Shown: positions 3,981 through 49,200, numbered from the stretch's first letter. The stretch is 64,000 bases of DNA from Patescibacteria group bacterium (GCA_041645165.1 JBAZQN010000008.1:2374-66373), one strand, 5' to 3'. Numbers and translations: made by a program. Notes: generated from the sequence alone by a model not told the origin.

Positions 3981-4760
3981 ATGACAGAAACTAGCAAATT
4001 TGAAAAACTTGGAAAATTAAGCCATAGCGACAGGCAAACGGCTCATTTTGATGGAGAGAAAGTTCAACATTATGAAGAAGTGTACGATTACCGCTCTAAA
4101 ACCTTTAAATGGATGATTGAAATCATTCTACCTTTGTTAAAAAATACTAAATCCATCCTTGATATAGGTACTGGCACTGGTGATTTGGTGAGAGCTATTA
4201 AGACAGAAGGTACTGTTACCGGTTTAGATATTTCTAATGATATGCTAAAAGTAGCAAAAGAAAAAAATCAAGATGGATGTTTTGTGCAAGGAGATGCTTA
4301 TAAATTACCTTTTAATGATAAAACATATGATGCGGTAACCTATAAATATGCCTTGCACCACCTTGATCAGCCCATCAAGGCTCTTACCGAGGCGTTTAGA
4401 GTATTAAAAGATAATGGCTGCATTATTATTGCTGATGTAGCGTCATTTAAAGAGGAAGTCAATCATTTAATTTTTAACAAATTAAATAGCCTTAGAGAAC
4501 CAGCAAATTATGAATATCGAACCATTAAAACTATTGAACAATTATTAAAAGTAGTTAGCTTTAATAATGTAACGGTTGTGCAAAAAGATTTTGATTTAGT
4601 ATTGGAAGATTGGCTTAATAATTTTTATAATCCTCAAGATACTATCAATCTGGTTTTGAATTCATCAGATTCCTTTAAAAATTCAATAAAATTGAAAGAA
4701 TTAAAAGATGGGAAGCATCAAATTACATTATCCTCTTTTATTATTAATGCAGTAAAATAA
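3981..4760 (+). CDS. Class I SAM-dependent methyltransferase. Low-GC (about 30-33%) insert between sufS and sufU.
   Basis: Motif I LDIGTGTGDL, an acidic motif II and Methyltransf_11-like architecture. AT content is much higher than the flanking suf genes. Confidence 0.65.
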   Translation: MTETSKFEKLGKLSHSDRQTAHFDGEKVQHYEEVYDYRSKTFKWMIEIILPLLKNTKSILDIGTGTGDLVRAIKTEGTVTGLDISNDMLKVAKEKNQDGCFVQGDAYKLPFNDKTYDAVTYKYALHHLDQPIKALTEAFRVLKDNGCIIIADVASFKEEVNHLIFNKLNSLREPANYEYRTIKTIEQLLKVVSFNNVTVVQKDFDLVLEDWLNNFYNPQDTINLVLNSSDSFKNSIKLKELKDGKHQITLSSFIINAVK

Positions 4761-5707: not shown

Positions 5708-5989
5708 TTATAATGGCATAAACGGGTCACGGAGTTCTGATTCATTTACTTTGTCGTGGACGGTCAATTTGAGGAGACGCTCTTTGATAAGCGTATCCCA
5801 TAATTTCATATTGAGTCGTTCCCGGGCAACGGTCCTTTCGAGTTGCTCCACAGTTTCAACTTGAGCGATAGTAAGATAAAAATTTTTATACAAAAATATC
5901 AATGTAACAACTACAATAATCACCACTATACTAAGATAAGTTATGGGTGCAATGCGCAATATAAGTAAGGAGGGTTTATGGAGGGGCAT
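5708..5989 (-). CDS. Hypothetical single-pass membrane protein with a coiled coil (last gene of the pilus operon; possibly PilP-like).
   Basis: N-terminal hydrophobic helix (ITYLSIVVIIVVVTLIFLY) followed by a charged helical segment. Position after the pilO-like gene. Confidence 0.35.
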   Translation of the reverse strand: MPLHKPSLLILRIAPITYLSIVVIIVVVTLIFLYKNFYLTIAQVETVEQLERTVARERLNMKLWDTLIKERLLKLTVHDKVNESELRDPFMPL

Positions 5990-6001
5990 AACGATTTAAG
6001 G

Positions 6002-6676
6002 TTAAAGCGATGAAGGGCGCCAATAGGTGGCAGCAGTAAGGGAAATTTTTAATAACGGTGCGGTGGGTAAAGAGTTGTCATCGGAAGGGAAATTAATATA
6101 TGAACTGCGGGATGCATTTGCGAGGTAGATAGTAAGAACATTCACATAAGGGTGCATTGCTTCTAATTCATGCAGATATGCAATAAATTGCGCATAGGTG
6201 CCTTCTATATCAAGTCTTAGCAATACTCTTCGTGAGAGAGGTTCAGGGTCTTCTATATCAAGTCTTAGCAATACTCTTCGTGAGAGAGGTTCAGGGGGAG
6301 ATTCTTCTGTAGAAACGTTTTGCGCGGTATCGAGATTTATTATTTGCTGCACGCCTACTTCAGTTGCCGCTGCTTCAAGCGCGGTAATAAATTCAAGCTC
6401 GTTACCTAAGGTAAGGAAAGAGGAGGCTACGAGAGGGATATCCTTTTTTACATTTTCGTATTCAGTCGAGCTTGTGCGAATATTTTGGCCGCGTTGATAA
6501 AGCATTTCCAACGCTTGCCGTTGAGTATGAATGCGTTCATTTAAATTTCGAATATCACGAATGGCAGGAACTATTACTAATATGCCAATAATCGCGGCCA
6601 TAAGCGCGCTTGTCACGATAATAATTATGGGGCGTAAATGGAGCATACTCAGTATATCAACCCAGCAGGAGAGCAA
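6002..6676 (-). CDS. PilO-like type IV pilus assembly protein.
   Basis: Single N-terminal TM, then a coiled-coil region. Position downstream of pilM and the pilN-like gene. Contains an in-frame 48-bp tandem duplication. Confidence 0.5.
   Translation of the reverse strand: MLSCWVDILSMLHLRPIIIIVTSALMAAIIGILVIVPAIRDIRNLNERIHTQRQALEMLYQRGQNIRTSSTEYENVKKDIPLVASSFLTLGNELEFITALEAAATEVGVQQIINLDTAQNVSTEESPPEPLSRRVLLRLDIEDPEPLSRRVLLRLDIEGTYAQFIAYLHELEAMHPYVNVLTIYLANASRSSYINFPSDDNSLPTAPLLKISLTAATYWRPSSL
6203..6298. repeat. Perfect 48-bp tandem duplication (2 copies) inside the pilO-like CDS.
   Basis: TTCTATATCAAGTCTTAGCAATACTCTTCGTGAGAGAGGTTCAGGG(TC/GG) x2; in-frame, encoding a duplicated PEPLSRRVLLRLDIE(D/G) segment. 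Confidence 0.9.
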
Positions 6677-8506: not shown

Positions 8507-8523
8507 CATATTTAATTGAAAAT

Positions 8524-8720
8524 TCCAAATCCTCACCGCTCAGGCGGGATCCCGCATACCTTAGAAAAAAGAATAAATGAGCGGGACAATTTCCAATGAC
8601 CAATTAAATCCCAATCCCAAAAATCCCAATACATTTGGTCATTCATGTTTTTTGAGTATTGATTGGTCATTGGGGTTTGGACATTGGTCATTTGATATTT
8701 GGATTTCTCACTTAACTTCT
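8524..8720 (+). repeat. Composite intergenic repeat element, copy A: ~75-nt conserved core followed by a tandem-repeat palindromic arm region.
   Basis: Core TCCAAATCCTCACCGCTCAGGCGGGATCCCGCATACCTTAGAAAAAAGAATAAATGAGCGGGACAATTTCCAAT, then (AAATCCCAAT)n ... (ATTGG..TTTGGA)n complementary arms. Confidence 0.75.
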
Positions 8721-10171
8721 TCCCATGAGAGTAAGGTGTATTGGTCGGAGGTTAATGGAAATGAGGGGGGCGGCGCATAAAGGAGGCTTGCATCATAGGT
8801 GATATTCCTCGTTTGATAGCCAGTGCCATCGGTATACGCAAAGCCATACCTTTGATTGGTTGCGAGCATGCCCCAAAGGGTTATTACTGACCGTATATAG
8901 GACGATCCGCACGTTATCCAATAATAGTATCGCCCAATTCTGCCATTCTTGGCAACTAACGCGGCATCAATCCGTAAATCATTTTCACTCGCCAATCCCA
9001 CATTTACATTATTTTGCGCAATGAGACCCAAAACCGCAGATCCGTCGTACGCGCCGTAAATAAGGTCATTATTAATGGTGATGCTCGTATTAGTGGAAGG
9101 ATTTTCTGGAAATTTTCCCGAAGCAATAGTAAGCCGCGCACTCGATATTTGCCCGTCAACCCAAATATGATCTTCAAAAAAAAGCACATTCGCGGAAGGA
9201 AACGGATACGTGCCAAGGGTTGTCTGCGCGCTGCCGCCTGTGCCAATACTCCAAGTGCCCCAGCCTGATTGGCTTAATTGGTTCGTGCACCATCTTGGAG
9301 GGGGTTGGAGAGAATTTACGCGCTTTAAAATGAAAGTGTCATTTGATTGCAAAGTGATGTGGTATCCCAAGGCGCCAGAGCTTGAGTAATAACCATTACT
9401 CGCTTGCGCTTGTGCCTTTATATCCGCTAAATCATTAATCATTCCCGTAAAGTCAACTGCGGGAACGGGGAATTGGCGCCCTGCCATAAATATATCAGTC
9501 CGGTTCGGCACCGCAGCGGGCGGGAGGGGGTCTGTGGGCGCGTCATGGGTATGTACGCCAAATTCATTCGCGCCGCTGTGGTCTGGGTCATCATAGGAAG
9601 TGCGCGCGCTTGTGATGAGGTTATGGGCGAGGCCGTCAAAGCGAATGCCGCCGTTTGAATGCGTTGGCCCAAACACTTCCGTGCCTTCTCCGAAACGCAT
9701 GTCCGCATTTGCGGCGATGGCAAATTTTGCCAGAGAAGGAATCGCATAGCGTACGCGTATCACGCGTTCCGCATGCGGCGCTTCGAGCGTAACGCCGCTT
9801 GATTCTACGTTCACCATGGTTGAACCGGTAGGGGGAGGGGTAATAGTGAGGGTAAAGGTGCCGATTTGCTCGCCCGCCCGATTGTTGAATGTATGGACAT
9901 AAGGTCCTGTAGAGCCGGTACCGTCCTGAAAATCATTTGGCGCGTGGGCAAGGTGCCAGCGATAATAGTCAACTCCCGCTTCTGCGATTTCAAACGCCAT
10001 TTCTTTCAAACTTCTTTGCCTTGCGAGGCGGCTTTGGCCTATGGACCACTGCGCTAAACCGCCGATTATGACAATGCCAATGCCCCCAAATACTATAAGG
10101 TGGATCAGCAACGCGCCATGAGCGGCTTGTTTTAAAAATTTAATCAAATAAGTGTGCGTATCCTTAACCAT
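8708..10171 (-). CDS. PilX-N-like minor pilin / pilus-associated protein (no canonical prepilin cleavage motif).
   Basis: N-terminal hydrophobic helix followed by QSRLARQRSLKEMAFEIAEAGVDYY, resembling the PilX_N domain. Large Gly/Ser/Thr-rich extracellular part. Confidence 0.45.
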   Translation of the reverse strand: MVKDTHTYLIKFLKQAAHGALLIHLIVFGGIGIVIIGGLAQWSIGQSRLARQRSLKEMAFEIAEAGVDYYRWHLAHAPNDFQDGTGSTGPYVHTFNNRAGEQIGTFTLTITPPPTGSTMVNVESSGVTLEAPHAERVIRVRYAIPSLAKFAIAANADMRFGEGTEVFGPTHSNGGIRFDGLAHNLITSARTSYDDPDHSGANEFGVHTHDAPTDPLPPAAVPNRTDIFMAGRQFPVPAVDFTGMINDLADIKAQAQASNGYYSSSGALGYHITLQSNDTFILKRVNSLQPPPRWCTNQLSQSGWGTWSIGTGGSAQTTLGTYPFPSANVLFFEDHIWVDGQISSARLTIASGKFPENPSTNTSITINNDLIYGAYDGSAVLGLIAQNNVNVGLASENDLRIDAALVAKNGRIGRYYYWITCGSSYIRSVITLWGMLATNQRYGFAYTDGTGYQTRNITYDASLLYAPPPSFPLTSDQYTLLSWEEVK

Positions 10172-10185
10172 ATTGTTAAGAGGTC

Positions 10186-10815
10186 TTATAAATTATCTTT
10201 CAGATTTCTAAGGTTTATGCCGCTGCGCGTTTGCAATGCTGCGGGAGGACGAGTGAGGTCTTTGTCAACGATAAGAGTTACTGTGAGAAAACGCACCACG
10301 CGCGCATCAACGGGCTGTGAGAGAGGCGCTTCAATCCCGGAATAATTTGTGTTGTAGTAAGAAAATACCGGCGTCGCGCCATTCACGAGGTTGTTAAGAA
10401 TAGTCGTTATGGTTTCATTTGCGCTCGGATACGTGACAGGGCTGCCCACCGGCTCGATGATGCCGCGCCGCAAGGTCGTTCCCGACACAAAGTAACGTAT
10501 CCTCTCTATGCCTGTATCACTGTCAACATTGCTGTAAAAGATTAACGACGAATCTAATACTGATTCAAGCGGGTAGGCGCCGTTGCCCGCGGTGGCGGCG
10601 ACTCTGGCTTCTGCAATAATTTTTTCAATTGCCTGCCTGCTCTCGAATTGCCCTGTCAATTGATTATTTAAAGTAGTATTAAATCTGAAAATATTCCCCT
10701 GAAATAGGCCAACCGCTAGAATTATTAACCCTAATATCGCGATTGCGATAACAGTCTCCAGCAGGGAAAATCCCTGATATCTGCACGAATAGAATCGTCT
10801 CACATAGCGAAGCAT
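10186..10815 (-). CDS. Type IV pseudopilin (prepilin-type N-terminal cleavage/methylation domain).
   Basis: Leader ...YQG|FSLLETVIAIAILGLIILAV matches the class III signal peptide G|F(S/T)L(L/I)E. Confidence 0.75.
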   Translation of the reverse strand: MLRYVRRFYSCRYQGFSLLETVIAIAILGLIILAVGLFQGNIFRFNTTLNNQLTGQFESRQAIEKIIAEARVAATAGNGAYPLESVLDSSLIFYSNVDSDTGIERIRYFVSGTTLRRGIIEPVGSPVTYPSANETITTILNNLVNGATPVFSYYNTNYSGIEAPLSQPVDARVVRFLTVTLIVDKDLTRPPAALQTRSGINLRNLKDNL

Positions 10816-10830
10816 AAAGTGCGTAATGTT

Positions 10831-12609
10831 TTAGGGCGACAATATGACTGAATACGCGTTGTTTCCTGTTATGTTGAGGCTGTCAGTAGACGTGGCATAC
10901 CCATCATGGTTCACCTCCACGGTATAATCATTTGCAGTGAGATTGGAAAAAAATGCCTGGCCCGGCGGCACGCAGCCGTTTACAAATGTAATGCCGATAT
11001 CAGAAACATTCGGCGATACCGTCGGATCAAGAGTGCTTAAGTAAATTTTGTACCTCATATAACGATTATTATTGTGGCTTGCATGCACGGAAGAGATACC
11101 CGGCGTATAAAAGCTGGATGAGGTGCCATCAGGGCCCGAGAAGCTCCATGTCGTATTGTCATTATTCGAGGCAAGCTGCATGCGCACGCTGTTAGCGCCT
11201 GTTTGAGGCAATTGGTCTGTAGGTTTCCAAAAGACTGACACATAATTAGTGCCGTTTCCAGTGTCTAGTGTTGATGAAATGAGTGTTCCGTTTGATTGGT
11301 AATTGCTTCCGCTGTGCGCAAGGAACAGATCGCCCGGCGTGGTAGTGGCATCAATACCGCCGTCATTATCATAATAACGGGTTTCGTCGGTAAACTGTTC
11401 CTGGCTCCCGCCTCCTGACCAATCGGTTTGCCATGCATAGCCGCGATTCGTTATTAAAGTAAGGTCGTAACCGCTGCGGGAAATATGCACTTGGCTATCA
11501 AGCAATGGTAGTTGCGTAGCGTTGTCGAGCACCGTGACGAGCAGCGAGTAAGAGGTATGGCTTTTGAGTACTAGCGTGATAGGCAATACGGCATCAGGCG
11601 ATACTATAACTGGCGATAAAGGGATGGAGCCGGCAAGATCATACCCTGTGTCGGTTAAGGTAAAAGTATACGTATCCCATTCAAGATTGGTCAGTTCGCG
11701 CACGCCATTGCCGTCAGTAAAAAAATTTTCAGAATATTTCAGCAATGTTGGGTTGGTGCCTATAAGTTTTGTCCCCTCGCTATGCAAATCGACAAAAGTA
11801 AGAGGATTGCAGAGTTGGTTTGTGGTCGTAAGGTGGATCGTGCTCACCTTATCAATCGAAAAGCTTACCTGCGTTACTTGTTGAGTAAGCACGGAAGCGT
11901 GCGGCTTTACCGGGTTTGGATTGCCAGGCGCTTCAGGCAGATATGTTTGTTCTGTCGAATACCCGTCTTTGGTGGCCCTGATGGCATACGATTCGTCTGA
12001 AGGCGGCACGTCAATGAGTTGCAATAACCCCTCGTTATTCGTCACATCATCAATCGCTATGGAAGGCGATACGATAGAATTTTCGACATGCACGGACGCT
12101 TGGGGCACGGCATGTCCGTTTGCGTCAAAAACGCGAATAAAAAGTGATCCGTTATTGGTCGAGACTTCTAAATTTTTTGGGGAAATGGTTGTGGTGAAGA
12201 CGAGGGGAGGGTTTCCCGTGCATGAGGCACAACTGACAGAAATTTCAACCAGCTTGTAATCAGCGGGGGCAGTATCATTGGGAGTCCCGCCGATTGTTCC
12301 GTCAAAAGGATCATCCACATTGCGGATCGTGGTATTCACGTTAAAAGAAATGCCATCACGCAGCAATGTCTGGGTTTGCGGTAAGGAACCGGCAGGGATT
12401 CCGCCGGAAGTGCCTACCGATGCGTAGGGTAAATTACGTATAATCTCTATTTGTTCATTCACGAGCGCGGTTGCCGCAACTCGCGCGCGTGAGGCATGGA
12501 TTAATTTGGTTGTTTGCGTGACGACTGAATAGATGCCAATCGCGATGAGAGTGAATACTGCCACGCCGACTATAGTTTCGATAAGAGTAAAGCCGTTCTT
12601 TTTTTTCAC
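10831..12609 (-). CDS. Giant type IV pilin/pseudopilin (about 590 aa mature protein).
   Basis: Prepilin motif KKKNG|FTLIETIVGVAVFTLIAIGIY. The most plausible start is GTG at 12609, giving the leader M-K-K-K-N-G. The ORF track extends the start to 12741 through a repeat element. Thr/Ser/Asn-rich beta-like body. Confidence 0.7.
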   Translation of the reverse strand: MKKKNGFTLIETIVGVAVFTLIAIGIYSVVTQTTKLIHASRARVAATALVNEQIEIIRNLPYASVGTSGGIPAGSLPQTQTLLRDGISFNVNTTIRNVDDPFDGTIGGTPNDTAPADYKLVEISVSCASCTGNPPLVFTTTISPKNLEVSTNNGSLFIRVFDANGHAVPQASVHVENSIVSPSIAIDDVTNNEGLLQLIDVPPSDESYAIRATKDGYSTEQTYLPEAPGNPNPVKPHASVLTQQVTQVSFSIDKVSTIHLTTTNQLCNPLTFVDLHSEGTKLIGTNPTLLKYSENFFTDGNGVRELTNLEWDTYTFTLTDTGYDLAGSIPLSPVIVSPDAVLPITLVLKSHTSYSLLVTVLDNATQLPLLDSQVHISRSGYDLTLITNRGYAWQTDWSGGGSQEQFTDETRYYDNDGGIDATTTPGDLFLAHSGSNYQSNGTLISSTLDTGNGTNYVSVFWKPTDQLPQTGANSVRMQLASNNDNTTWSFSGPDGTSSSFYTPGISSVHASHNNNRYMRYKIYLSTLDPTVSPNVSDIGITFVNGCVPPGQAFFSNLTANDYTVEVNHDGYATSTDSLNITGNNAYSVILSP

Positions 12610-12737
12610 TGTTGAAATTTTCAAATTACAATTTCTAATTTTCAAATAATTTTCAATGTCCCAATTTTCAAACATCTGCGGCTTATGAAATTGTGACATT
12701 GATTGAAAATTGAAAATTGAAAATTGATAATTTTGAT
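12610..12737. repeat. Palindromic tandem-arm element: (AATTTTCAA)x4 ... (TTGAAAATT)x3.
   Basis: The left arm is tandem copies of a 9-10-mer and the right arm is tandem copies of its reverse complement. Lies between pilC and the giant pilin gene. Confidence 0.7.
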
Positions 12738-13835
12738 TCATATCGTCTGGGTGAGTGAATACATCGGCATGATGATAGCGACAGCCATAGCACCCACACC
12801 CGCGCCAAGGATTAAAATCAGCAGCGGTTCTATGATGGAAGGGAGGTTTTTCATTATCTGATCAACTTCCTCTTCATAAAAAAGCGCAAGTTGGGAAAGG
12901 ACATTGTCAAGTGCTCCTGATTCTTCACCCACGCGCGTGAGCTGGCTGACCACCGGCGGGAAAAGGTGGGGATATGATGAAAACACCACATGTACCGGTG
13001 ATCCTTTTTTGAGGCGTTCTGCAAGATCAAGCAGTGCTTCGCGGTAATAGATATTTTTTATTGTGCGGGACGTAATTATTGACGCCTGTACGATGGGAAT
13101 GTCTGTCGTGAGGAGCGATGAAAAGGTACGGCTTATGCGAGCTAAGTTTACTTTATGGATGATAGGACCGAAAATGGGCAAACGAAGTAACAATGTATGT
13201 AGTATATGTGTACCTAAAGCAGTTTTAGCAAAAGCACGGAAGGCGACAATAAGCAACACCAATCCAATAAGTACAAAGGGACCATTTTTCGTAGTGAAGT
13301 TACTCGTGGCGATAAGAATTCTGGTAGGGAGCGGCAGCGTCGCTTTAAATTCTGCAAAAACACTTATAAGTCTCGGGATCACAAATATCATCATGGCAGT
13401 TCCAATGCCGATCATGGCAATTATGACAATAGAAGGGTAGAGCATGGCGCCGCGCACCTTGGAGATAAGTTCGTGGTCTTTTTTCATCTGTTCGGTTACG
13501 TGCTGCAGCACTTCGTCGAGTTTTCCTGAAAGTTCTCCGCTCTCAATCATGCTGACAGTAAGATCAGGAAAAACTGAAGGATGCATCGAGAGTGCCCGTG
13601 CGAATGGCGTTCCTTTCTCTACTTGTTCGTAAATGTTGTGTATTACATAATGGAATCGTTTATGCGTAGATTGATCTGCAAGGGTCCGCAATGCCATAGC
13701 AAGAGAGAGGCCTGCCTTCACCATTACCTGGAGATTTTGTATGAAAAAGATTTTTTCTGTAAGTGAAATCGGATGATGGCGGCTTATCCACGATAAAGTG
13801 TTTTGGGGAGTTTTGTTGTAATTTTGTTCTGGCAT
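12738..13835 (-). CDS. pilC: Type IV pilus inner-membrane platform protein PilC (GspF family).
   Basis: Two T2SSF-like repeats with membrane helices. Located between pilB and the pilin genes. Confidence 0.8.
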   Translation of the reverse strand: MPEQNYNKTPQNTLSWISRHHPISLTEKIFFIQNLQVMVKAGLSLAMALRTLADQSTHKRFHYVIHNIYEQVEKGTPFARALSMHPSVFPDLTVSMIESGELSGKLDEVLQHVTEQMKKDHELISKVRGAMLYPSIVIIAMIGIGTAMMIFVIPRLISVFAEFKATLPLPTRILIATSNFTTKNGPFVLIGLVLLIVAFRAFAKTALGTHILHTLLLRLPIFGPIIHKVNLARISRTFSSLLTTDIPIVQASIITSRTIKNIYYREALLDLAERLKKGSPVHVVFSSYPHLFPPVVSQLTRVGEESGALDNVLSQLALFYEEEVDQIMKNLPSIIEPLLILILGAGVGAMAVAIIMPMYSLTQTI

Positions 13836-13856
13836 GGCGCGTCAAAATTAACAATA

Positions 13857-15590
13857 TCAATCTTTGGCAACACGGAGAAGCTCCTCGATGGTAGTGATGC
13901 CTTGCTTTGCCTTAATAAACCCGTCTTGGAACATGGTGTACATGCCTTCTTTTTTTGCGCATGCGTTTATTTCTTCAGCAGATGCCCGTTTTAAAATAAG
14001 CTCAGTGATCGCAGGTGTTATGGAGAGAACCTCATAAATGCCTATACGCCCTTTATACCCTTCCTGGTTGCATTGTTTACAGCCCTTTCCTTTCCAGAAT
14101 TCCAGCGATTCGAATCGGGTTTTAGGGGAATCAACCAATTTTTCTTTTGCAAATATTTCAATTATCGCGGAAAGGTCAAATTGGTTATTTAATTCTTGCA
14201 CCGTATTGCGATCGAGTTTTATCGGTTGTTTGCAATTTTGACAAATTTTACGCGTAAGCCGCTGCGCGAGCACCAGATTAACAGTTGAGGTAATGAGGAA
14301 AGAAGCGACTTGCATATCCTGCAGTCGTGGAAACGCGGTGGCGGCGTCGTTCGTGTGGAGTGTAGAGAGCACTAAGTGTCCTGTCATAGCTGCATTTACC
14401 GCTATATCTGCAGTTTCTGAATCTCGTATTTCACCGACCATGATGACATTGGGATCTTGGCGCAAAAAAGACCTTAATCCTGCAGCGAAGGTATAGCCTA
14501 TTTTCGGGTTTACCTGGCTCTGGTTCACTCTAGGCATCCGATATTCTATGGGGTCTTCAATGGTAGTGATATTTACATTTGGCGTATTTATAATATTGAG
14601 AATGGTATAGAGTGTTGTCGTTTTTCCGGAACCGGTAGGGCCGGTTATTAATATCATCCCATGGGGTTTGGTGATGTTGAATTTGATTTTATCAAGAGAT
14701 TTTCCGTAAAACCCGAGCTGTTCGAGCGTGAGTATCTGTGCGGATTCGTTTAAGAGCCGCAATACTATTTTTTCACCGTCAAACACGGGAATGACCGAGA
14801 CACGGAATGAAATACGGTATTCATTGGTGCTTATTTTGAATCTGCCATCCTGCGGCATTCGGTGTTCGTCGAGTTTTAAATTAGCAAGAATTTTTATGCG
14901 CGCGACTATGCCTGATTGGGTTTTTTTTGGCAATGTCATGACATCGCGCAATATGCCGTCTACGCGATATCTGACTACCACTTCTTTTTCTGTGGGTTCA
15001 ATATGGATATCAGATGCGCCTTCAAAAATGGCATATTCGAGCAGGGTATCCACAATGCGAATGATGGGAAGGTCCTGCGCGAGCTCTTTTAGTTTTTCGT
15101 GATCTTCATCATTTATTACTTCAGCTTTTGTGATTTCCTCAAATTCAGCCTTTAATGATTTATGGTATTGTTTCAGTATTTCGTGTATGTCGGTAGGCGT
15201 GGTGATGTATATTTCAATATCCAGCCCTGTGCGTTTTTTTATAAATTCAAAAGTTTGAAGATCGTCGGGGTCAAGGGTCGCCACTTTCAATGCGGTATCC
15301 GTGCGGTTGAACGCGACAATGAGATGGGAAGAAGCAATCGGTTCAGGAATGAGATTAAGAATATCTTTTCGGATATTGAGCGCGTTGAGCTTCACATAAG
15401 GATATCCTAAAAGTTCTGCCTGAATTTCAGCCAGCTGATCCTCGGTGATCAATTTTTTTTCAAGCAAAACCTGCTCTAACTGCTTATGGGATGATTCTGC
15501 CTCCTTTAATGCCGCATCCAGTTCTTTTTTTGAAGCAATTTTTCCCTTTATTATCGCTTCAAAGAGATTTTTAGATTGAGAGAGGGGCAT
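13857..15590 (-). CDS. pilB: Type IV pilus assembly ATPase PilB (GspE family).
   Basis: Walker A GPTGSGKTTTLY, Asp/His boxes, a tetracysteine motif (CKQCNQEGYKGRIGIYEV) and an N-terminal GspII_E domain. Confidence 0.9.
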   Translation of the reverse strand: MPLSQSKNLFEAIIKGKIASKKELDAALKEAESSHKQLEQVLLEKKLITEDQLAEIQAELLGYPYVKLNALNIRKDILNLIPEPIASSHLIVAFNRTDTALKVATLDPDDLQTFEFIKKRTGLDIEIYITTPTDIHEILKQYHKSLKAEFEEITKAEVINDEDHEKLKELAQDLPIIRIVDTLLEYAIFEGASDIHIEPTEKEVVVRYRVDGILRDVMTLPKKTQSGIVARIKILANLKLDEHRMPQDGRFKISTNEYRISFRVSVIPVFDGEKIVLRLLNESAQILTLEQLGFYGKSLDKIKFNITKPHGMILITGPTGSGKTTTLYTILNIINTPNVNITTIEDPIEYRMPRVNQSQVNPKIGYTFAAGLRSFLRQDPNVIMVGEIRDSETADIAVNAAMTGHLVLSTLHTNDAATAFPRLQDMQVASFLITSTVNLVLAQRLTRKICQNCKQPIKLDRNTVQELNNQFDLSAIIEIFAKEKLVDSPKTRFESLEFWKGKGCKQCNQEGYKGRIGIYEVLSITPAITELILKRASAEEINACAKKEGMYTMFQDGFIKAKQGITTIEELLRVAKD

Positions 15591-15651
15591 GGGTTTGGTA
15601 TAGACGTTATGTTGTATATATTATACCATAGAATATGACGTTGCGCATGAG

Positions 15652-16038
15652 ATGCTAGTAAAACTCCCATTTATGCCACTTTTCCCCTCATTACGAAAGG
15701 ATTTATACCACCGGCTTCCATGGGTTATATGGAATGTGGCGATTTCGTTTGTTTTAAATGCGGCAACCTGGGTCTATGTGTATTTTACCATTGAGCCATC
15801 GGTAGATCCGATCCCGCTGCATATCACCGTGTATTTCGGAATAGATTTTATAGGCCCTTTTTGGTATTTTTACCTGCTTGCGGCATCAGGCACCCTCATG
15901 ACCATATTCAATGGCGGTGTGGGAAGGATGCTTTATCGCGATGAGCCAAGGCTTGCTGCGGCATTACTTACGTTCACAACGGTAATGAATGCGTTTTTGT
16001 GCGCCATCACGGTTTACCTTTCAACATTTGTGTTATGA
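15652..16038 (+). CDS. Hypothetical integral membrane protein (4 predicted TM).
   Basis: Hydrophobic profile only. Confidence 0.3.
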   Translation: MLVKLPFMPLFPSLRKDLYHRLPWVIWNVAISFVLNAATWVYVYFTIEPSVDPIPLHITVYFGIDFIGPFWYFYLLAASGTLMTIFNGGVGRMLYRDEPRLAAALLTFTTVMNAFLCAITVYLSTFVL

Positions 16039-16724
16039 GCGATCATGAGCCGTATCATTATTTTAATGAAATTTCGATTGGCCACGACTCAAGCGTTATG
16101 ATAGGGCGCAAATATGAGGAAGGTTATGTTTTTACGAGACGGGGGCCGCACATTATGCGACAGGTGCGCTCGGTAAGAGTTTCCATAGGCTCCTTTCAAT
16201 TATCAAGCGAGAATCGTCGGATCTTGAAAAACTATGCTTTCCTTAATCTCCATTATGAAGCACTGCCTTATCCAGGCTATCATTGGACAATTGGAAAAAT
16301 TGCAGTTGATTTTTATAAAAAGAAAACGGGCTCACGCGCCATGAGCGCCCAGAAAATAAAGACCCTATTCACCTCGCCTCATGAAAGCATGAATGGCGTT
16401 TTTATATATCAATGGAAACAAGTAGAACGCCCTCTCGGCTACAGCCTTCTTTTTTCATCTGCGCGTATGCTTCATTATGCGTATCCTTTTTACGACGTGG
16501 CACATGCACGCGCATTAACGCTTCCTTCCTTGGGAATGGCAATGATGCTCAAGGCGATCCTTTGGGCGCAAGAAAAAAATATGGACTATGTATATCTGGG
16601 AAGTATCCACAATGAACGCTCACTCTATAAATTTCAGTTTAAAGGAGTGGAGTGGTTTAATGGTAAAAAATGGCAGCAGGGGAAACCTGAAAAATCCCAA
16701 ATCCAAATTTCAAAGTTCAAATAA
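16035..16724 (+). CDS. Arginyl/leucyl-tRNA--protein transferase-like protein (ATE1/Bpt family, ATE_C-like).
   Basis: C-terminal DYVYLGSIHNERSLYKFQFKGVEWF resembles the ATE_C motif (YLGYYI...YK..F.P.E.L). The start is probably the internal Met at 16035. The last ~11 codons are read from a repeat element. Confidence 0.4.
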   Translation: MSDHEPYHYFNEISIGHDSSVMIGRKYEEGYVFTRRGPHIMRQVRSVRVSIGSFQLSSENRRILKNYAFLNLHYEALPYPGYHWTIGKIAVDFYKKKTGSRAMSAQKIKTLFTSPHESMNGVFIYQWKQVERPLGYSLLFSSARMLHYAYPFYDVAHARALTLPSLGMAMMLKAILWAQEKNMDYVYLGSIHNERSLYKFQFKGVEWFNGKKWQQGKPEKSQIQISKFK

Positions 16725-16810
16725 AATCCAAAATCCCAATGTCAAATTTGATATTGGACATTTGAACTTGAGATTTTATTTGATATTTGGATTTTGACAT
16801 TGGGATTTAA
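16691..16810. repeat. Palindromic tandem-arm element (AAATCCCAAT / ATTGGGATTT type).
   Basis: aaatcccaaatccaaa...atccaaaatcccaatgtcaaatttgatat | atatttggattttgacattgggattt. Long imperfect palindrome. Confidence 0.7.
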
Positions 16811-16847
16811 GCAAATAATGTAGAGAATTTTCGAGAGGATAGTTTTC

Positions 16848-18257
16848 ATGCTTATGATCGCAAAAAGACACATTCATTTTATAGGAATATGCGGCACTGC
16901 CATGGCGCCAGTCGCTAAAATGTTTTGGGATTTGGGATGGCGCGTAACTGGTTCTGACAAAGGCATTTATCCCCCTATATCGGATTATTTAAAACAGAAT
17001 AAGATTGCATATTATGTTGGATTTCATCCTGAGCGGATAGGGAATCCTGATAAGGTAGTGGTGGGGAATTATATCAGCCTTGTAAATCCTGAATTTTCTG
17101 CGATAAGGGAGCGCGGTATTCCTTATCAGTCCTACCCTGAGGCATTACGGGAATACGTAATAAAATCAAACTCAATCGTGGTTGCGGGAAGTTTTGGAAA
17201 AACCACCACGACCGCACTTCTTGCGTGGATTTGGGAATGCGCGGGGAGACGCCCTTCATTCATGGCAGGCGGAATGATGCGCAATTTTCCTAATAGCGTG
17301 CGATCAAATGATTCGTTATGGAGCATTGTAGAAGGTGACGAGTATCCGGCATGCCGATGGAATCCTGTCCCAAAATTTTCATTTTATGACCCGCATTTTT
17401 TAGTGTTAACCGGCGTGCAGTGGGATCACGCAGATATCTATACGACAGAAGAATCCTACATTGAAATGTTTAAAAAGTTGGTTGCATCGATGCCTCCCAA
17501 TGGACTCATCTGCGCGGCTTTGGACCGACCACATATGCGCGATGTTCTCAACAAGGCATCTGCACCGGTGGTATGGTACGGAAGGACTGGGAGCGGTGCA
17601 GATTGGAGCACAGAGGTGTTATATCAAAAAAAAGCAACCAAAATGACATTTTACGGACCTTCAAATGAAACAATAGGCCCGGTGAGTGTGCCTCTTTTGG
17701 GCAGTATTGCATTCGATCACTTTACCGGTGCAGTAGCGCTTGCGCGTGCTTCCGGCATTGATCAAACTGCCATCATGCAAGCGCTCACCTCGTTCCAGGG
17801 AGTATGCAGGCGGCTTGAAGTAAGGGGTGTGGTGAACAAGGTGAGCATAATAGACGACTTCGCCCATTCACCGAGCAAGGCAAAATCTGCTATTGATGCG
17901 GTGAAGCAAACATTTAATCGCGGACGCGTCATAGTCGTTTTTGAACCGAACGTAGGGAATCGGCTTCGTTCGTTAGCGCCCTCATATAGAGATGCGTTTA
18001 ATTCCGCGAATACCGTTATTGTGCCGCGTTTATCAGCAACGAAACACAATGAAAATACAGAGGCAAGGTTGGATGGCGCACAACTTGCGCAAATTATCAG
18101 TTCATCGAATACTCATATAGAGGAAGTCGTTTATATCGATGATGATATTCAGGTTGTCCAAAAGCTGCAAAAAATCGCCCAACCGGGCGACTGCATACTT
18201 TTTCTCGGCTCGCATGGATTCAGAGGGATGATCGAACAGACACTAGAGTGTCTGTAA
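16848..18257 (+). CDS. Mur ligase family protein (Mpl/MurC-like; UDP-N-acetylmuramate-peptide or L-Ala ligase).
   Basis: N-terminal HIHFIGICGTAMAPVA...VTGSD, P-loop VVAGSFGKTTTTAL and a Mur ligase middle/C-terminal domain. The ICGT motif favours Mpl. Confidence 0.7.
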   Translation: MLMIAKRHIHFIGICGTAMAPVAKMFWDLGWRVTGSDKGIYPPISDYLKQNKIAYYVGFHPERIGNPDKVVVGNYISLVNPEFSAIRERGIPYQSYPEALREYVIKSNSIVVAGSFGKTTTTALLAWIWECAGRRPSFMAGGMMRNFPNSVRSNDSLWSIVEGDEYPACRWNPVPKFSFYDPHFLVLTGVQWDHADIYTTEESYIEMFKKLVASMPPNGLICAALDRPHMRDVLNKASAPVVWYGRTGSGADWSTEVLYQKKATKMTFYGPSNETIGPVSVPLLGSIAFDHFTGAVALARASGIDQTAIMQALTSFQGVCRRLEVRGVVNKVSIIDDFAHSPSKAKSAIDAVKQTFNRGRVIVVFEPNVGNRLRSLAPSYRDAFNSANTVIVPRLSATKHNENTEARLDGAQLAQIISSSNTHIEEVVYIDDDIQVVQKLQKIAQPGDCILFLGSHGFRGMIEQTLECL

Positions 18258-18367
18258 TGCCAAAGTTCAAATTTCCAATTTCAAATTGACATGTGACATT
18301 TGTCCCGCTCCTTGAATTTGGTTATCTAAAGTATGCGGGATCCCGCTGAAGCGGGAAATTTTGAGCT
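18258..18367 (-). repeat. Same repeat family, copy B (reverse orientation).
   Basis: Reverse complement reads TCAAAATTTCCCGCTTCAGCGGGATCCCGCATACTTTAGATAACCAAATTCAAGGAGCGGGACAAATGTCAC..., collinear with copy A. Confidence 0.75.
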
Positions 18368-18386
18368 TTGTCATTCCCCGTAGGGG

Positions 18387-18557
18387 CTATTTCTCCTCTT
18401 CCACGATGACCGTAGTAAAATTTCCTTGCGCGTCAATTCCAGTCACTTCTAGTGTCATGCCGCACTGTTCGCATTCAACAACTTCGCCTTTGCTTAAAGC
18501 GCCACGCTCATAATCAAGCTCATTTTTGCATTCAGGGCATGTGGTATGGTAATCCAT
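18387..18557 (-). CDS. LysW-like small zinc-ribbon protein (56 aa; absent from the ORF track because it is under 60 aa).
   Basis: MDYHTTCPECKNELDYERGALSKGEVVECEQCGMTLEVTGIDAQGNFTTVIVEEEK. The CPEC...CEQC spacing and the ...LEV.G.D... pattern resemble the alpha-aminoadipate carrier protein LysW. Acidic C-terminal tail ending in EEEK (LysW ends in Glu). Confidence 0.5.
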   Translation of the reverse strand: MDYHTTCPECKNELDYERGALSKGEVVECEQCGMTLEVTGIDAQGNFTTVIVEEEK

Positions 18558-18638
18558 ATGAAATATTGTTAAATTGTTACATTGCTGTACTGTTAAGCAA
18601 TAACAGTGTAGCCATATTACAGTGTATCAATCAATCCA

Positions 18639-19586
18639 ATGAAATTGCAACCCACCCCCCTTCAGAAATGCATTTTTCCTCTCCTCCCGGAAAACTGTAT
18701 GGGTAGAATAATATATATCAAGCGAGAGGACTTGAATCCTTCCGGTTCCCATAAAGATAGGGCGCTTTTTCCCTATGTCGATAAATTAGTGAAGAAGGGG
18801 GAGGAGGCATTTTGCCTAAGCTCTTCGGGCAACTTTGCCGTTTCTGCCGCGTATTATGCGCACCATCATACACAGGTTCAATTCCATCTTTTTCTTCCTC
18901 CAACGATTTCCCAAGAAAAAAAAGACAGATTAAACGAATACAAGACTGACAACGTAATTATTCACTGGTCAAAATTGGCAAAAAGCGAAGCAGGTCAATT
19001 TAGCCGTAAAACACATATACGTCTATTACGAGGGTCGAAGGACGATTGCTTACTTGAAGGGTACTATGAGTTAGTAAGAGAATTAGTAGAACAGACTAAA
19101 GGTAAAGGAGGGAGTGTTTTTATGGCTGTATCTTCAGGAACAATGTTGGTAGGGTTATGGGAGGGATTTCAAAATAATCCAAAATCCAAAATCTCCCGCC
19201 ATAGCGGGATCTCGCATATCTTAGAGAATCAGATTCAAGGTGCGGGACAAATACCCAATTTTTATATTGTGCAATCGACGAGGGTGCATCCTATCGCGAG
19301 TGAGTTTGATAGCGATTTTACGCCAACAAAATCTTCCATAGCATCAGCCATTGTGGATCGCGTCGCAAATCGTAAAGATCAGGTGGTCAACGCGGTTAAA
19401 GAAAGCCACGGATCGGGATGGATCGTATCTGATGAAGAAATTACAATTGCGATGAAAAAGTTAGCCGGAGTTCTGCATGAAAACGTGAGTCCGGAAAGCG
19501 CCATGTCGCTCGCGGGTTTACAAAAGGCTTGTTCAAAAGGTTTTCATGTAAAGAAACCGATTGTATTAATTTTTACTGGGAAATAG
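18639..19586 (+). CDS. Fold-type II PLP-dependent enzyme (Trp-synthase-beta / Cys-synthase / Thr-synthase superfamily).
   Basis: TPL...IYIKREDLNPSGSHKDRA (PLP-Lys motif) and the glycine loop AVSSGTMLVGL. Contains an in-frame ~69-nt repeat-element insertion after the NNPKSKI segment. Confidence 0.7.
   Translation: MKLQPTPLQKCIFPLLPENCMGRIIYIKREDLNPSGSHKDRALFPYVDKLVKKGEEAFCLSSSGNFAVSAAYYAHHHTQVQFHLFLPPTISQEKKDRLNEYKTDNVIIHWSKLAKSEAGQFSRKTHIRLLRGSKDDCLLEGYYELVRELVEQTKGKGGSVFMAVSSGTMLVGLWEGFQNNPKSKISRHSGISHILENQIQGAGQIPNFYIVQSTRVHPIASEFDSDFTPTKSSIASAIVDRVANRKDQVVNAVKESHGSGWIVSDEEITIAMKKLAGVLHENVSPESAMSLAGLQKACSKGFHVKKPIVLIFTGK
19182..19262 (+). repeat. Same repeat family, copy C, located inside the PLP-enzyme CDS and read in-frame.
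   Basis: TCCAAAATCTCCCGCCATAGCGGGATCTCGCATATCTTAGAGAATCAGATTCAAGGTGCGGGACAAATACCCAAT is collinear with copies A and B. Encodes ...SKISRHSGISHILENQIQGAGQIPN. Confidence 0.7.
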
Positions 19587-19771
19587 TATGCCCAGTTATA
19601 CAATATCCAAGAGGGAGGCTCATACCTTTAGATGGGAAATTAATAGATTTCTAAGAATCAGTTTGAGAGCATCGAAAAACGCTTTCATTGCCTCCCTCAT
19701 CAAACGCCAAACGTGATCTTCAAGCTTTGTTATGAATCAATTCTCCAAGGTCGCATTTATTTCATGGATTT

Positions 19772-21163
19772 ATGCAATGCCAGCCCCGTTTGGCGTTGGA
19801 TATTGATATTCTGGGTATGGCGTTTTTCTATATTACTCGCGACATTGAGCGCGCAGCAGGATTTTTGGGCATACGTAATGATTATTATGTGATTACCTAT
19901 CCAAGTCCGCTGGCAGAGGCAATAAAGCACAAATTTAGTAAGCAAATCATTTTAATAAATCAAGTTACAAGCAACAAGAAACAAGTTACAAAATTGAGAG
20001 TGCGAAGTACGCTCGCATTGATAAGGAGTGAATATGTGCAGGAAAAGGTTCATGAGTTGCCAGATAAAGAGCAACCGAATATTTTAGTGTTTAAAAATTC
20101 TCATCAGATTGAAGAAGAGTGCGAAAAATTAAATTGGAAGCTGCTAAATCCTTCCGCAGAACTTTCTGGGAAGATTGAAAATAAGATTAGTCAATATAGT
20201 TGGCTTAGAGAAGAAAAGAGCGCTTCACTTGAGGTATTGACTCCTATAAGCATTATTGGCGAGGTTGGTCAATTTGAATATGAAGATTTAATGCGCCAGT
20301 TTGGAAAAGATTTTATTATGCAATATAACATCGGCCATACTGGGTCTGGAACGAAACGTATTATCAATGAACAATTGTGGAAAAATGAGGTTGTAAGGTT
20401 TCCCAAACGTATAGTAAAGATTTCGGAGTATATTAAGGGTAGGATGTATACTATCAATGCATGTGTGATAGGGGATAATAATGTAGTATGTGGAGGCACT
20501 AGCGAACAGATCACAGGTTTGAAGGAGCTCACAGGCAATCAGCTAGCGACAGTTGGGAATGATTGGAACAGCGTGAGCGAAGAGACGCATAATAAGGTAA
20601 AAAAAATTGCCGTGGAAATAGGCAAATATATGATGCAGAACGGATGGAGGGGATTATTTGGCATTGACGTGATCATTGATGCGGCCGCAGACCGGGCATA
20701 TCTTATAGAAATAAACGCACGGCAGCCGGCATCGGTTAGCTTAGAGTCGCAATTACAAAATGAAAACGACGAAATAAATATTATGGAATGGCATGTAAAT
20801 ACGTTATGTGGTAATAACGCCCCCCAACCCCCTCTTATATTAAGAGGGAGAGATTGGAGAGTTACAGGATCTCAATTATTTTTCCGCAATATTGAAAATC
20901 ATCCAGTTTCGTTGCAAAATGAATTTTTGCCGGGTCGCTACAAGGCAGACAAACAAGGACATGAGTTTATTGAAAAAGCAACAAGTGTGGCTGAAACGCA
21001 AAAAGGTGAAATATTTGCTTTTTCGGTTTCTCAAAATGAAAAGGTAAAACCAGGCGGAGAACTCTTGAGAATACAGTCAAAACAAGGTATAGTTGACACG
21101 TTTGGTAAAAATTATCTCGATGTTATGAGAAGTATTCGTAAAGAAATACAGATTGAAATATGA
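19772..21163 (+). CDS. ATP-grasp family ligase.
   Basis: GWRGLFGIDVIIDAAADRAYLIEINARQ is the ATP-grasp C-terminal signature. The upstream central domain carries a Lys-rich ATP-binding region. The start codon is uncertain (the ORF track gives the longest version). Confidence 0.65.
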   Translation: MQCQPRLALDIDILGMAFFYITRDIERAAGFLGIRNDYYVITYPSPLAEAIKHKFSKQIILINQVTSNKKQVTKLRVRSTLALIRSEYVQEKVHELPDKEQPNILVFKNSHQIEEECEKLNWKLLNPSAELSGKIENKISQYSWLREEKSASLEVLTPISIIGEVGQFEYEDLMRQFGKDFIMQYNIGHTGSGTKRIINEQLWKNEVVRFPKRIVKISEYIKGRMYTINACVIGDNNVVCGGTSEQITGLKELTGNQLATVGNDWNSVSEETHNKVKKIAVEIGKYMMQNGWRGLFGIDVIIDAAADRAYLIEINARQPASVSLESQLQNENDEINIMEWHVNTLCGNNAPQPPLILRGRDWRVTGSQLFFRNIENHPVSLQNEFLPGRYKADKQGHEFIEKATSVAETQKGEIFAFSVSQNEKVKPGGELLRIQSKQGIVDTFGKNYLDVMRSIRKEIQIEI

Positions 21164-23029: not shown

Positions 23030-23133
23030 AATTCCAAATCCCAATATCCAATTCCCAATAAAGCTCCAAGCCCCAATTTCCAAAATTGATTATTTGACAT
23101 TTGGATTTTGAAATTGGGATTTATTCACGAAAT
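23030..23133. repeat. Palindromic tandem-arm element (AAATCCCAAT / ATTGGGATTT type) between mraY and ftsW.
   Basis: ccaaatcccaatatccaattcccaat...ccaaaattgattatttgacatttggattttgaaattgggattt. The 3' end is nearly identical to the 16691-16810 element. Confidence 0.7.
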
Positions 23134-49096: not shown

Positions 49097-49200
49097 TCCA
49101 AAATTTAAAGTCCAAAAATCAAAATGCGAGATCAAAATGCAAAAATTTTTGATTATTAATTTTCATTTTTAGATTTTAGGTTTTACATTTTGCATTTTTA
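49085..49200. repeat. Palindromic A-rich / T-rich arm element (CAAAATGCAAAAA / TTTTTGCATTTTG type).
   Basis: tccaaaatttaaagtccaaaaatcaaaatgcgagatcaaaatgcaaaaattttt...ttttacattttgcatttttac. Confidence 0.55.

Follow-up and report, generated by a model that had tools for sequence, protein, structure and literature searches.

A 54-nt palindromic element within heptanucleotide arrays of a Patescibacteria genome, with one copy in frame in a PLP enzyme gene

The stretch of Patescibacteria DNA analysed here (the window, 64 kb) carries three related copies of a 54-nt element, A, B and C, all within 11 kb. Copies A and B lie between genes and copy C lies inside the gene for a PLP enzyme. These copies, the repeats beside them and a second kind of mobile repeat in the window are located as follows.

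2442–2664 and 19591–19815: true MITE, 223/225 nt, with 20-nt terminal inverted repeats and a TATG duplication
8534–8586, + strand: copy A, 53-nt core CACCGC-TCAG-GCGGGA-TCCCGC-N25-GCGGGA; intergenic; orthologous site in the relative L016 empty
8587–8700: heptamer arrays beside copy A, of CCAAT/CCCAAT type and then inverted ATTGGTC-type units (8662–8692, ATTGGTC × 4.4)
18261–18302: heptamer array on one side of copy B, of CAAATTT/GACATTT type (repeat at 18261–18287)
18303–18356, − strand: copy B, 54-nt core between convergent MurC-like and LysW genes; site in the relative L002 empty
18357–18375: heptamer-type flank on the other side of copy B, AATTTTG AGCTTTG TCATT
18639–19586, + strand: host gene of copy C, fold-type II PLP enzyme (PF00291), threonine-synthase-like, 315 aa
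19173–19193, + strand: in-frame heptamer array 5' of copy C, 21 nt, AATAATC CAAAATC CAAAATC, read as N-N-P-K-S-K-I
19194–19247, + strand: copy C, 54-nt core forming codons 186–203 (SRHSGISHILENQIQGAG) of the PLP enzyme, sense strand
19248–19259, + strand: heptamer-type flank 3' of copy C, 12 nt, CAAATACCCAAT, read as Q-I-P-N

The unit common to the copies is 53–54 nt long, with the layout TCCCGC-N4-GCGGGA-TCCCGC-N25/26-GCGGGA, or a-N4-a'-a-N25/26-a' (a = TCCCGC, a' = GCGGGA), and its terminal repeat is solely the 6-bp inverted pair TCCCGC/GCGGGA. The 22-mer GCGGGATCYCGCATAYYTTAGA, with up to three mismatches allowed, has exactly three matches in the window, at 8544 (+), 18346 (−) and 19204 (+), as compared with 0.01 expected by chance from shuffles, while an independent repeat finder matched B to C (73 nt, 81%) and A to B (33 nt, 85%). 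The alignment of the three is collinear, each carrying the two palindromes as well as the blocks TTAGA and GCGGGACAA. A preliminary description of this DNA had reported three collinear copies of a ~75-nt core. The relationship between the copies, which is above chance, stands; the length of the core does not, and the CCAAT tail and CCAAAATC head that had been counted in it are both present in relatives' empty sites and are thus parts of the heptamer arrays.

Two further copies are known, one in L006 (GCA_040960375.1), which is the orthologue of copy C, and one in L001 (MGER01000047.1), giving five copies from four independent sites in three genomes. The core is 54 nt, or 18 codons, in four of the five, copy A having 53 nt. 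A non-palindromic 26-nt segment, ATAC-TTAGA...TTCAAGG, is common to the copies at all four independent sites in the three genomes, which argues for a common origin. No further copy was found in the other ~59 kb read of the same genome (about 70 kb read altogether), and the clustering of the window copies within 11 kb fits local copying as much as it fits transposition.

Copy A lies 25 nt from the start codon of PilM (379 aa, P0125; start at 8509) and is antisense to both of its neighbours, the upstream gene ending at 8708. Copy B lies between the stop codons of the MurC-like gene (18257) and LysW (18387), whereas copy C is translated in frame within the PLP enzyme ORF as ...KISRHSGISHILENQIQGAGQIPN.... 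Gene coordinates and translation therefore agree with the earlier placing of A and B in intergenic DNA and of C in a reading frame, and the picture of a palindromic repeat family, dispersed and with a single genuine copy in frame, is upheld.

CAAAAT/CAAAT units flank all five copies, and the empty sites in relatives are themselves heptamer arrays; the array at 18261–18302 is kept in L002, whose site is empty. On the 5' side of copy C the array can be read as AATCCAA × 2.6 at 19176–19193. The preliminary description had missed that every copy sits inside such an array and that the loop of the PLP enzyme (PALP loop) is itself colonized by arrays of this type. They are common across the window, and CCAAAAT-like heptanucleotide arrays occupy many intergenic regions of this Uhrbacteria-related Patescibacteria lineage. 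The arrays differ by whole units between relatives and so are recombinationally or replicatively active. They also occur in frame in other genes, in SufS, where there is a 7-aa (three-unit) length difference from L019, and in an ATP-grasp gene, where the array forms a 10-aa insert.

At the site of copy B, L002 reads TCAAAATC^CAAATGTCA, with flanks near-identical to those of the window, and at the site of copy A, L016 reads AAATCC^CAAATCCCAATGACC, again with conserved flanks. Both comparisons show just the TCCCGC-to-GCGGGA stretch as additional DNA, and the junction of the element at its sites is ...AAATC^CAAAT.... Neither A (as compared with L016) nor B (as compared with L002) is accompanied by a target-site duplication, with at most one ambiguous C. 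As judged from the aligned sequences, these filled and empty sites show an element gained or lost as a precise, discrete block. Copies A and B are missing from all relatives read (L002/L016, L006/L018, L012/L019), B being missing from L006 and L012 as well as from L002, so that insertion in the window lineage is a more parsimonious reading than its alternative, repeated precise loss of both copies in the relatives. Copy C is present in the window and in L006, and is missing from L002, L012, L013, L014, L020 and L021. With A and B missing from every relative read, this distribution indicates that the insertion events differ in age.

The host of copy C is, as reported earlier, a fold-type II PLP enzyme, although not a cysteine-synthase-like one, since the nearest solved structures are threonine synthases. 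Its AlphaFold model has a mean pLDDT of 87, while residues 183–202, between helix 168–179 and strand 207–213, fall below 50; the claim that the insert occupies a surface loop thus holds in the model, in which the loop is predicted to be disordered. Most orthologues of the enzyme do not have the inserted segment, as the preliminary description had proposed, and presence and absence meet at a similar distance: a relative at 83% protein identity has the insert and one at 81% does not. The core in L006 matches copy C at 48 of 54 positions. Between the window and the relative at 83% protein identity, nucleotide identity is 88.5% for the insert and 84.7% for the rest of the gene, and 6 of the 11 codon changes in the insert alter the amino acid. 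The insert has therefore diverged at about the gene's own rate, and copy C is not recent, contrary to the recent activity suggested earlier. Two protein-database searches, one word-indexed over 5.8 billion proteins and the other run exhaustively with HMMER over 1.84 billion representatives, detected the insert peptide in no protein outside this PALP lineage.

Across the eight lineages read, the PALP loop contains heptamer-type repeats in six and a hairpin-forming or palindromic insert in six, the inserts falling into at least four kinds. L020 and L021 have only a heptamer array in the loop; L012 has a different palindrome there, surrounded by heptamers. Judging from these sequences, heptamers probably came to the loop first and acted as a landing pad.

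Among known small repeats, two kinds resemble the element most. SDR1–8 of Nostoc and other heterocystous cyanobacteria, reportedly described by Elhai et al. in 2008 (Genome Res 18:1484) as embedded in STRR heptamer arrays, are said to be 21–27 nt long and confined to a subgroup of cyanobacteria. Like SDRs, the element is very small, hairpin-forming, dispersed and without a transposase of its own; all five copies are embedded in tandem heptanucleotide repeats, with presence and absence between related genomes, and the window heptamers (ATTGGTC, CCCAAT) resemble the SDR-hosting STRR units. Unlike SDRs, which were compared by description only, it is 53–54 nt long with a doubled a/a' layout, its host belongs to the Patescibacteria/CPR rather than the cyanobacteria, and five copies are known. 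REP/REPIN elements are mobilized by RAYT (Y1/HUH) transposases (PMC3116915). The element has in common with them a short, GC-rich, imperfect palindrome, a non-autonomous and dispersed nature, gain or loss with no obvious target-site duplication, and hairpin ends that suit recognition in single-stranded DNA. It differs in its tiny observed copy number, in having no RAYT in the 64 kb and no GTAG/CTAC head, and in the direct order of its two hairpin units within 54 nt, where a REPIN is an inverted doublet. REP/REPINs being palindromes of 20–40 nt or inverted doublets, extragenic and high in copy number, an element with three copies per 64 kb, one of them intragenic, does not match that description. 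The element had also been treated as a MITE. It is indeed non-autonomous, short, non-coding, multi-copy and insertion-polymorphic between relatives, but unlike classical bacterial MITEs (taken as described in PMC10969869), of which the 223/225-nt element of this window is an example, it has neither a target-site duplication, at either empty site, nor long terminal inverted repeats. Its terminal repeat is of 6 bp only, the window contains no IS with whose ends that repeat might be matched, and for want of a duplication the element does not pass as a classical MITE.

We consider the element most likely to be a small palindromic insertion element that is non-autonomous and behaves most like cyanobacterial SDRs and REPs. 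That it is a discrete insertion element which targets heptamer arrays, with copy C as a tolerated passenger, appears probable. The element would insert inside CCAAAAT-like arrays, at the junction given above, and would be mobilized in trans by an enzyme whose gene lies elsewhere in the genome. Precise gain and loss of a block with hairpin-forming ends point to such an enzyme, and as the ~62 ORFs of the 64-kb window include no transposase, RAYT or Y1 gene, it is one that we purely infer. The likeliest kind would be a recogniser of hairpins in single-stranded DNA, like those of REP/RAYT and IS200/IS605-type systems; that a specific enzyme of this kind moves the element is a tentative proposal, rather more doubtful than the targeting of arrays. 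A point against it is that the element has hairpins flush with its ends, whereas those of IS608-type elements are subterminal and have adjacent guide sequences. An in-frame heptamer array would have colonized the PLP enzyme loop and the element would have landed in it later, making copy C a by-product, inherited since before the split between the window and L006 and tolerated because it adds 18 codons, leaves the frame open and lies in a disordered loop. The account as a whole, of a 53–54-nt non-autonomous insertion element in heptamer arrays, moved by a hairpin-recognizing enzyme in trans and with the coding copy as a by-product, is one that we favour with moderate confidence.

The same data could arise with no dedicated enzyme, if the element were copied from array to array by ectopic homologous recombination, gene conversion or replication template switching, with the flanking heptamers as the homology. 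Such copying would account for the presence of every copy in a heptamer array; donor and recipient junctions are identical (AAATC^CAAAT), so that a conversion tract would be traceless, and the lack of target-site duplications at A and B and of a transposase in the window, the clustering of three copies within 11 kb and the change of arrays by whole units between relatives all fit. Nevertheless, the same 53–54-nt block is extra in both comparisons of empty and filled sites, the adjoining heptamers stay the recipient's own (GTCACATGTC at site B matches GTCAAATGTC in L002), and the flanking homology is short and imperfect. Homology of that kind is a poor substrate for RecA-type recombination, and we judge copying between arrays to be somewhat unlikely.

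A functional cis-acting motif under selection, either a terminator, a processing site or, on the perfect 12-bp palindrome GCGGGATCCCGC, a binding site for a dimeric protein, is suggested by stem sequences that are nearly invariant across three genomes, by a folding z of −4.0 for copy B, and by the strand opposite the element, which has a T-rich heptamer run after hairpin 1, passes a simple terminator pattern in copy C and, for A and B, is the upstream gene's sense strand. We regard it as quite improbable. Copies A and B do not pass the terminator pattern, which leaves one copy of three; orientation is inconsistent, A being antisense to its neighbours, the L001 copy in sense orientation and upstream of its gene, and C intragenic; A and B are missing at otherwise conserved sites of close relatives, and hairpin 2 is decaying in the coding copies, with a mismatch in L006 (TCACGC). 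The stems show no covariation and fit two folds equally, either two side-by-side hairpins or a closing stem around an internal GCGG-GAUC-CCGC hairpin. In Rfam 15, among whose families RPEs are not included, the whole window gives no match at any family's gathering score, and the copies are free of overlapping matches even at E ≤ 10. The RNA-level function raised earlier is thus not borne out, and nothing indicates that the peptide or RNA of copy C does anything. Less probable still is an RPE-like, gene-adapted element whose conserved open frame encodes a peptide meant for proteins, so that in-frame insertion is normal. RPEs are about 100–150 bp long and fall into ten families; a genome has dozens of them inserted in frame, and their peptides are conserved (PMC10969869). 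The element is like them in being a palindromic repeat found both between genes and in frame in a housekeeping enzyme, at a fold-compatible position; the frame ISR.SGIPHTL.N.IQGAGQ is open in all five copies, intergenic ones included, and four have a core of exactly 18 codons. Unlike RPEs, again compared by description only, it is 54 nt long, belongs to an unrelated phylum and has a single in-frame event. The RPE-like behaviour described earlier is therefore weak: one of four independent sites is coding, and both database searches confine the peptide to one PALP lineage, where it is modelled as disordered and over half of its codon changes are non-synonymous. Copy A has 53 nt, and an 18-codon frame is open by chance in an estimated ~40% of cases, (61/64)^18. 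Chance resemblance or an assembly artefact we reject, given three matches against 0.01 expected, the presence of the element in the independently assembled genomes of L006 and L001, and an identical insert-bearing PALP protein in separate NCBI, JGI, ENA and Logan records.

A wider reading would make heptamer arrays and GC-rich palindromes a transposase-free, self-propagating system, common by convergence or transfer to CPR and heterocystous cyanobacteria, which would routinely enter coding loops in frame in this CPR clade and be a general source of protein-loop diversity. It has its basis in the heptamer-type repeats found in the PALP loop of six of the eight lineages, in the palindromic or hairpin-forming inserts, of at least four unrelated kinds, found there in six, and in the in-frame arrays of SufS and ATP-grasp, and we think it unlikely.

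Full-text searches of a literature collection found neither heptamer arrays nor small palindromic repeats described for Patescibacteria/CPR; the element is real, and is similar to small repeat elements known from other bacteria. On present sequence data its family appears small and rare, with no demonstrated function. Patescibacteria genomes measure ~1 Mb and are usually considered streamlined. Such inserts give enzymes extra disordered segments and can throw off boundaries drawn from homology, a hazard for annotation, and the PALP loop suggests a route of loop growth in which a heptamer array enters in whole-codon multiples and a palindromic unit then lands in it. At least three kinds of small repeat occur in one 64-kb window, the 54-nt element, the true MITE and the heptamer arrays, with more palindrome families in relatives, which shows that selfish or repeat-driven DNA turnover continues in such genomes too. 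A second palindrome family seen in relatives, GTAGCGACAGGTCGCGACCTGTCGCTAC, is more REP-like in look.

Within the window the conserved 22-mer GCGGGATCYCGCATAYYTTAGA is matched three times with up to three mismatches (8544 on the + strand, 18346 on the − strand and 19204 on the + strand), as compared with 0.01 matches expected from dinucleotide-preserving shuffles. The three copies can be aligned collinearly, and a separate repeat search recovered the B–C pair over 73 nt at 81% and the A–B pair over 33 nt at 85%, in agreement with the three related palindromic copies of the preliminary description. Every copy has the core layout TCCCGC-N4-GCGGGA-TCCCGC-N25/26-GCGGGA. Gene positions and translation of the PALP ORF, which encodes a threonine-synthase-like fold-type II PLP enzyme (PF00291), confirm that A and B are intergenic and that C is in-frame within the enzyme gene.

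Copies of the palindromic element in the window
8534–8586: copy A, 53 nt, intergenic, first arm decayed to CACCGC
18303–18356, reverse strand: copy B, 54 nt, intergenic, between convergent MurC-like and LysW genes
19194–19247: copy C, 54 nt, translated in-frame in PALP ORF 18639–19586

The annotated start of the PilM protein (P0125, 379 aa) lies at 8509, near copy A; the protein that hosts copy C is MFA4873041.1.

Syntenic contigs were compared at ~81–84% (loci L002–L005 and L016/L017), ~83% (GCA_040960375.1; L006 and L018) and ~55–73% (GCA_040757655.1; L012 and L019) protein identity. In L002, the flanks of site B are near-identical and the element is absent; the empty site reads ...TCAAAATC^CAAATGTCA..., with the TCCCGC-to-GCGGGA stretch of the window located at the caret. 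Site A in L016 reads ...AAATCC^CAAATCCCAATGACC..., the core being the sole extra sequence in the window. No target-site duplication was found at A or B in these comparisons of empty and filled sites. The unit that is present or absent in relatives is 53–54 nt, shorter than the ~75 nt originally described; the CCAAT tail and the CCAAAATC head already occur in empty sites and are thus part of the target, not of the element. Since copies A and B are missing in all three relatives compared, their insertion in the window lineage is the more parsimonious reading. Where copy A would lie, GCA_040960375.1 (L018, ~1566–1590) has a simple hairpin of 7 bp among heptamers, TCCCGCC-CAG-GGCGGGA, whose arms match those of the 54-nt element in sequence and which may be a minimal module related to it.

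The family is real, small and rare. An exact search for the 22-mer in 185,579 species genomes gave one match, Candidatus Uhrbacteria RIFCSPLOWO2_02_FULL_49_11, in which a fifth copy (L001), ~87% identical to B as counted by hand, lies in an intergenic heptamer array. An nhmmer profile of the copies revealed no extra or degenerate copies in L002–L005, L012–L014, the remainder of the window or, outside the window, the ~6 kb of this genome that L015 covers; L016–L021 were covered by a hairpin pattern scan only. Pattern scans of metagenomes and viral contigs are uninformative on the distribution of the element, their internal gap having been set to 25–40 nt as compared with the true 22–24 nt; a pattern whose gap covers the true spacing is GCGGGATCNCGCATAN{20,26}GCGGGAC. 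Five metagenome pattern matches (L007–L011) were rejected as one unrelated GC-rich coding gene, and the viral contigs gave no match. Inspection by eye led us to drop a tRNA origin, the 2-nt loop in GCGGG-AT-CCCGC being incompatible with a T-arm, and a CRISPR-repeat origin, the array being absent.

All copies of the element are located within arrays of tandem heptanucleotides. Tandem Repeats Finder and direct reading identified, in many intergenic regions of the window, inverted pairs of such arrays, CCAAAAT-like units being followed by ATTTTGG-like units. Heptamer arrays also occur within genes, in whole-codon multiples.

Examples of heptamer arrays in the window
8600–8700: intergenic
12615–12732: intergenic
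16691–16808: intergenic
18261–18287: intergenic
23030–23122: intergenic
49100–49200: intergenic
3127–3154: (GAACAAG)n run in the SufS-like gene, 7 aa (3 units) different from L019
19961–19991: (CAAGTAA)n run in the ATP-grasp gene, 10 aa longer than in three orthologues

The inverted pairs are able to form long hairpins, and their units resemble cyanobacterial STRR repeats. Sub-threshold Rfam look-alikes of miRNA precursors at the long heptamer hairpins were dismissed as generic hairpin matches.

The AlphaFold model of the PLP enzyme (mean pLDDT 87.4, pTM 0.86) has a sole long low-confidence stretch, residues 183–202, between strand 207–213 and helix 168–179, which comes after the SSGT phosphate loop. 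This supports the proposed surface-loop placement of the insert. The enzyme was first aligned by eye to cysteine-synthase-like proteins, but among solved structures its fold is closest to threonine synthases (24–25% identity). Copy C corresponds exactly to codons 186–203, with 21 nt of heptamer-type sequence before it and 12 nt after it.

The PLP-enzyme loop as read in the DNA of eight lineages
L020: bare (GGATTCA/GATTCCA)n heptamer array
L021: bare (TGACAAA)n heptamer array
L012: AATCCAA heptamers flanking a different near-palindrome, CTTGTCTCGAGCCAAG
L013: heptamer-like units (CATAACC CCCATAA), then nested C5/G5 hairpins
L002 and L014: 28–30-nt GTAG...CTAC palindrome
Window and L006: heptamers and the 54-nt element

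The PLP-enzyme segment is thus not common to the orthologues: copy C is present in L006, with 48 of the 54 core positions identical, and absent from the L002, L012, L013, L014, L020 and L021 orthologues. The in-frame insertion is genuine. The window and L006 share 88.5% nucleotide identity over the insert, compared with 84.7% over the remainder of the gene, and 6 of the 11 codon changes in the insert are non-synonymous; it behaves as a passenger that evolves along with its host gene. Copy C goes back to one old insertion, which earlier heptamer colonisation of the disordered loop explains. In the simplest history, a heptamer array would have colonised this tolerant loop, and palindromic units would then have landed in the array, as between genes. 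Another PALP loop, in L013 (808–951), contains an in-frame composite palindromic insert, GATCCCCGG-CTTGA-CCGGGGATC, an AT-rich spacer and GGATTCCCGCCTGCACGGGAATGA, reading ...LDSRLHGND....

The palindrome in L002 and L014 belongs to a second family, GTAG(C/T/G)GACAGGTCGCGACCTGTC(G/A/C)CTAC, of 28–30 nt with REP-like GTAG/CTAC ends, which is absent from the window. Arm changes between its copies preserve the palindrome. Two lineages (L002 and L014) carry it in-frame in the PALP loop that holds copy C in the window, and it lies inside other ORFs in L001 and L013.

Copies of the GTAG...CTAC family
L002–L005: ~6553–6581
L014: ~5732–5761
L001: ~4200–4227
L013: 1–28

Folding of the 54-nt element gives two hairpins per copy (Z-scores: A, −1.7; B, −4.0; C, −2.5). 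There is no evidence for selected RNA structure, since the stems of the five copies are invariant in sequence and contain no compensatory pairs, and a second fold has an equal score, making the two indistinguishable. In the whole window no Rfam family reached its gathering score, and over the copies there was no match even at E ≤ 10, so that the RNA-level function initially entertained finds no support. Among the copies, only the antisense strand of C passed the terminator scan, and the promoter scan found none at any copy. A functional cis-element is unlikely, given that orientation is inconsistent, that copies are missing in close relatives at conserved sites and that hairpin 2 is decaying in the coding copies.

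The small dispersed repeats (SDRs) of Nostoc, which Elhai and colleagues are said to have described in 2008, reportedly lie in STRR heptamer arrays. By this description, SDRs are the closest to our element in behaviour, both being located in heptamer arrays, although the element is twice their size and comes from a different phylum. With REP/REPIN sequences (PMC3116915) it has palindromy and the absence of duplication in common, but no RAYT was seen among the window ORFs and the layout differs. The suggestion that the element is a classical MITE fails at sites A and B, neither of which is duplicated, whereas a true MITE in the same window, an internal control for this comparison, shows a TATG duplication together with terminal inverted repeats of 20 nt, CCCCGTAATACAACATCCAA.

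Copies of the true MITE (223/225 nt)
2442–2664: between the SufD and SufS genes
19591–19815: between the PALP stop and the ATP-grasp start, a junction at which L002 and L006 lack the MITE

Within each copy of this MITE, the two terminal repeats co-vary. As for Rickettsia palindromic elements (RPEs; PMC10969869), the common ground is only the outcome, an in-frame and fold-compatible insertion. As there is just one coding event, an RPE-like lifestyle adapted to genes is unlikely: a database-wide search with a concatenated multi-frame peptide query returned only P0001 and P0002, that is, the PALP lineage, and an exhaustive 32-aa phmmer search gave no further in-frame copies. The PALP reading frame is open in all five copies, which over 18 codons is not surprising.

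The element is a discrete 53–54-nt block with hairpin-forming ends, gained or lost precisely at the same heptamer-unit position, without duplication and at different times. We infer that an enzyme encoded at another locus of the genome may mobilise it in trans, most plausibly one that would recognise single-stranded-DNA hairpins in the style of REP/RAYT or IS200/IS605. The main rival, in which recombination or template switching would copy the block from one array to another without a dedicated enzyme, fits the array specificity, the missing target-site duplication, the occurrence of three copies within 11 kb and the absence of transposase in the window, where no transposase Pfam domain was found in ~62 ORFs. 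Such copying is harder to reconcile with boundaries that are identical and sharp and with retention of the recipient's own flanks. Phenomena of this general kind have already been described in other bacteria. The novelty lies in the host phylum, in the doubled-hairpin architecture of 54 nt and in the heptamer-array/palindrome parallel here and in cyanobacteria.

The window belongs to a 73,362-bp contig of a MAG. Its gene content (type IV pilus, mur/fts cluster, SUF) fits CPR bacteria, and of the PilM homologues with a lineage name, the one with the best score (54% identity) belongs to Candidatus Uhrbacteria. A conserved trio (18387–21163), made up of a LysW-like carrier, the threonine-synthase-like PLP enzyme and an ATP-grasp protein, lies within the mur/fts cell-wall cluster and suggests an amino-group-carrier-protein pathway, possibly for cell-wall amino acid supply. 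The SufB ORF (33–1601) has a LAGLIDADG_3 domain within its SUFBD core, probably an intein or homing endonuclease, and the L019 orthologue is shorter (465 aa). At 61068–63304, a 3-dehydroquinate synthase (DHQS) domain is split over two overlapping ORFs (ROK plus the N-terminal part of DHQS, then the remaining DHQS), owing either to a frameshift or to an uncommon arrangement of fusion and splitting; the gene calls in L015 are identical. A perfect 48-nt tandem duplication (6202–6296; 2.0 copies, 100% identical) lies within the minus-strand ORF 6002–6676.
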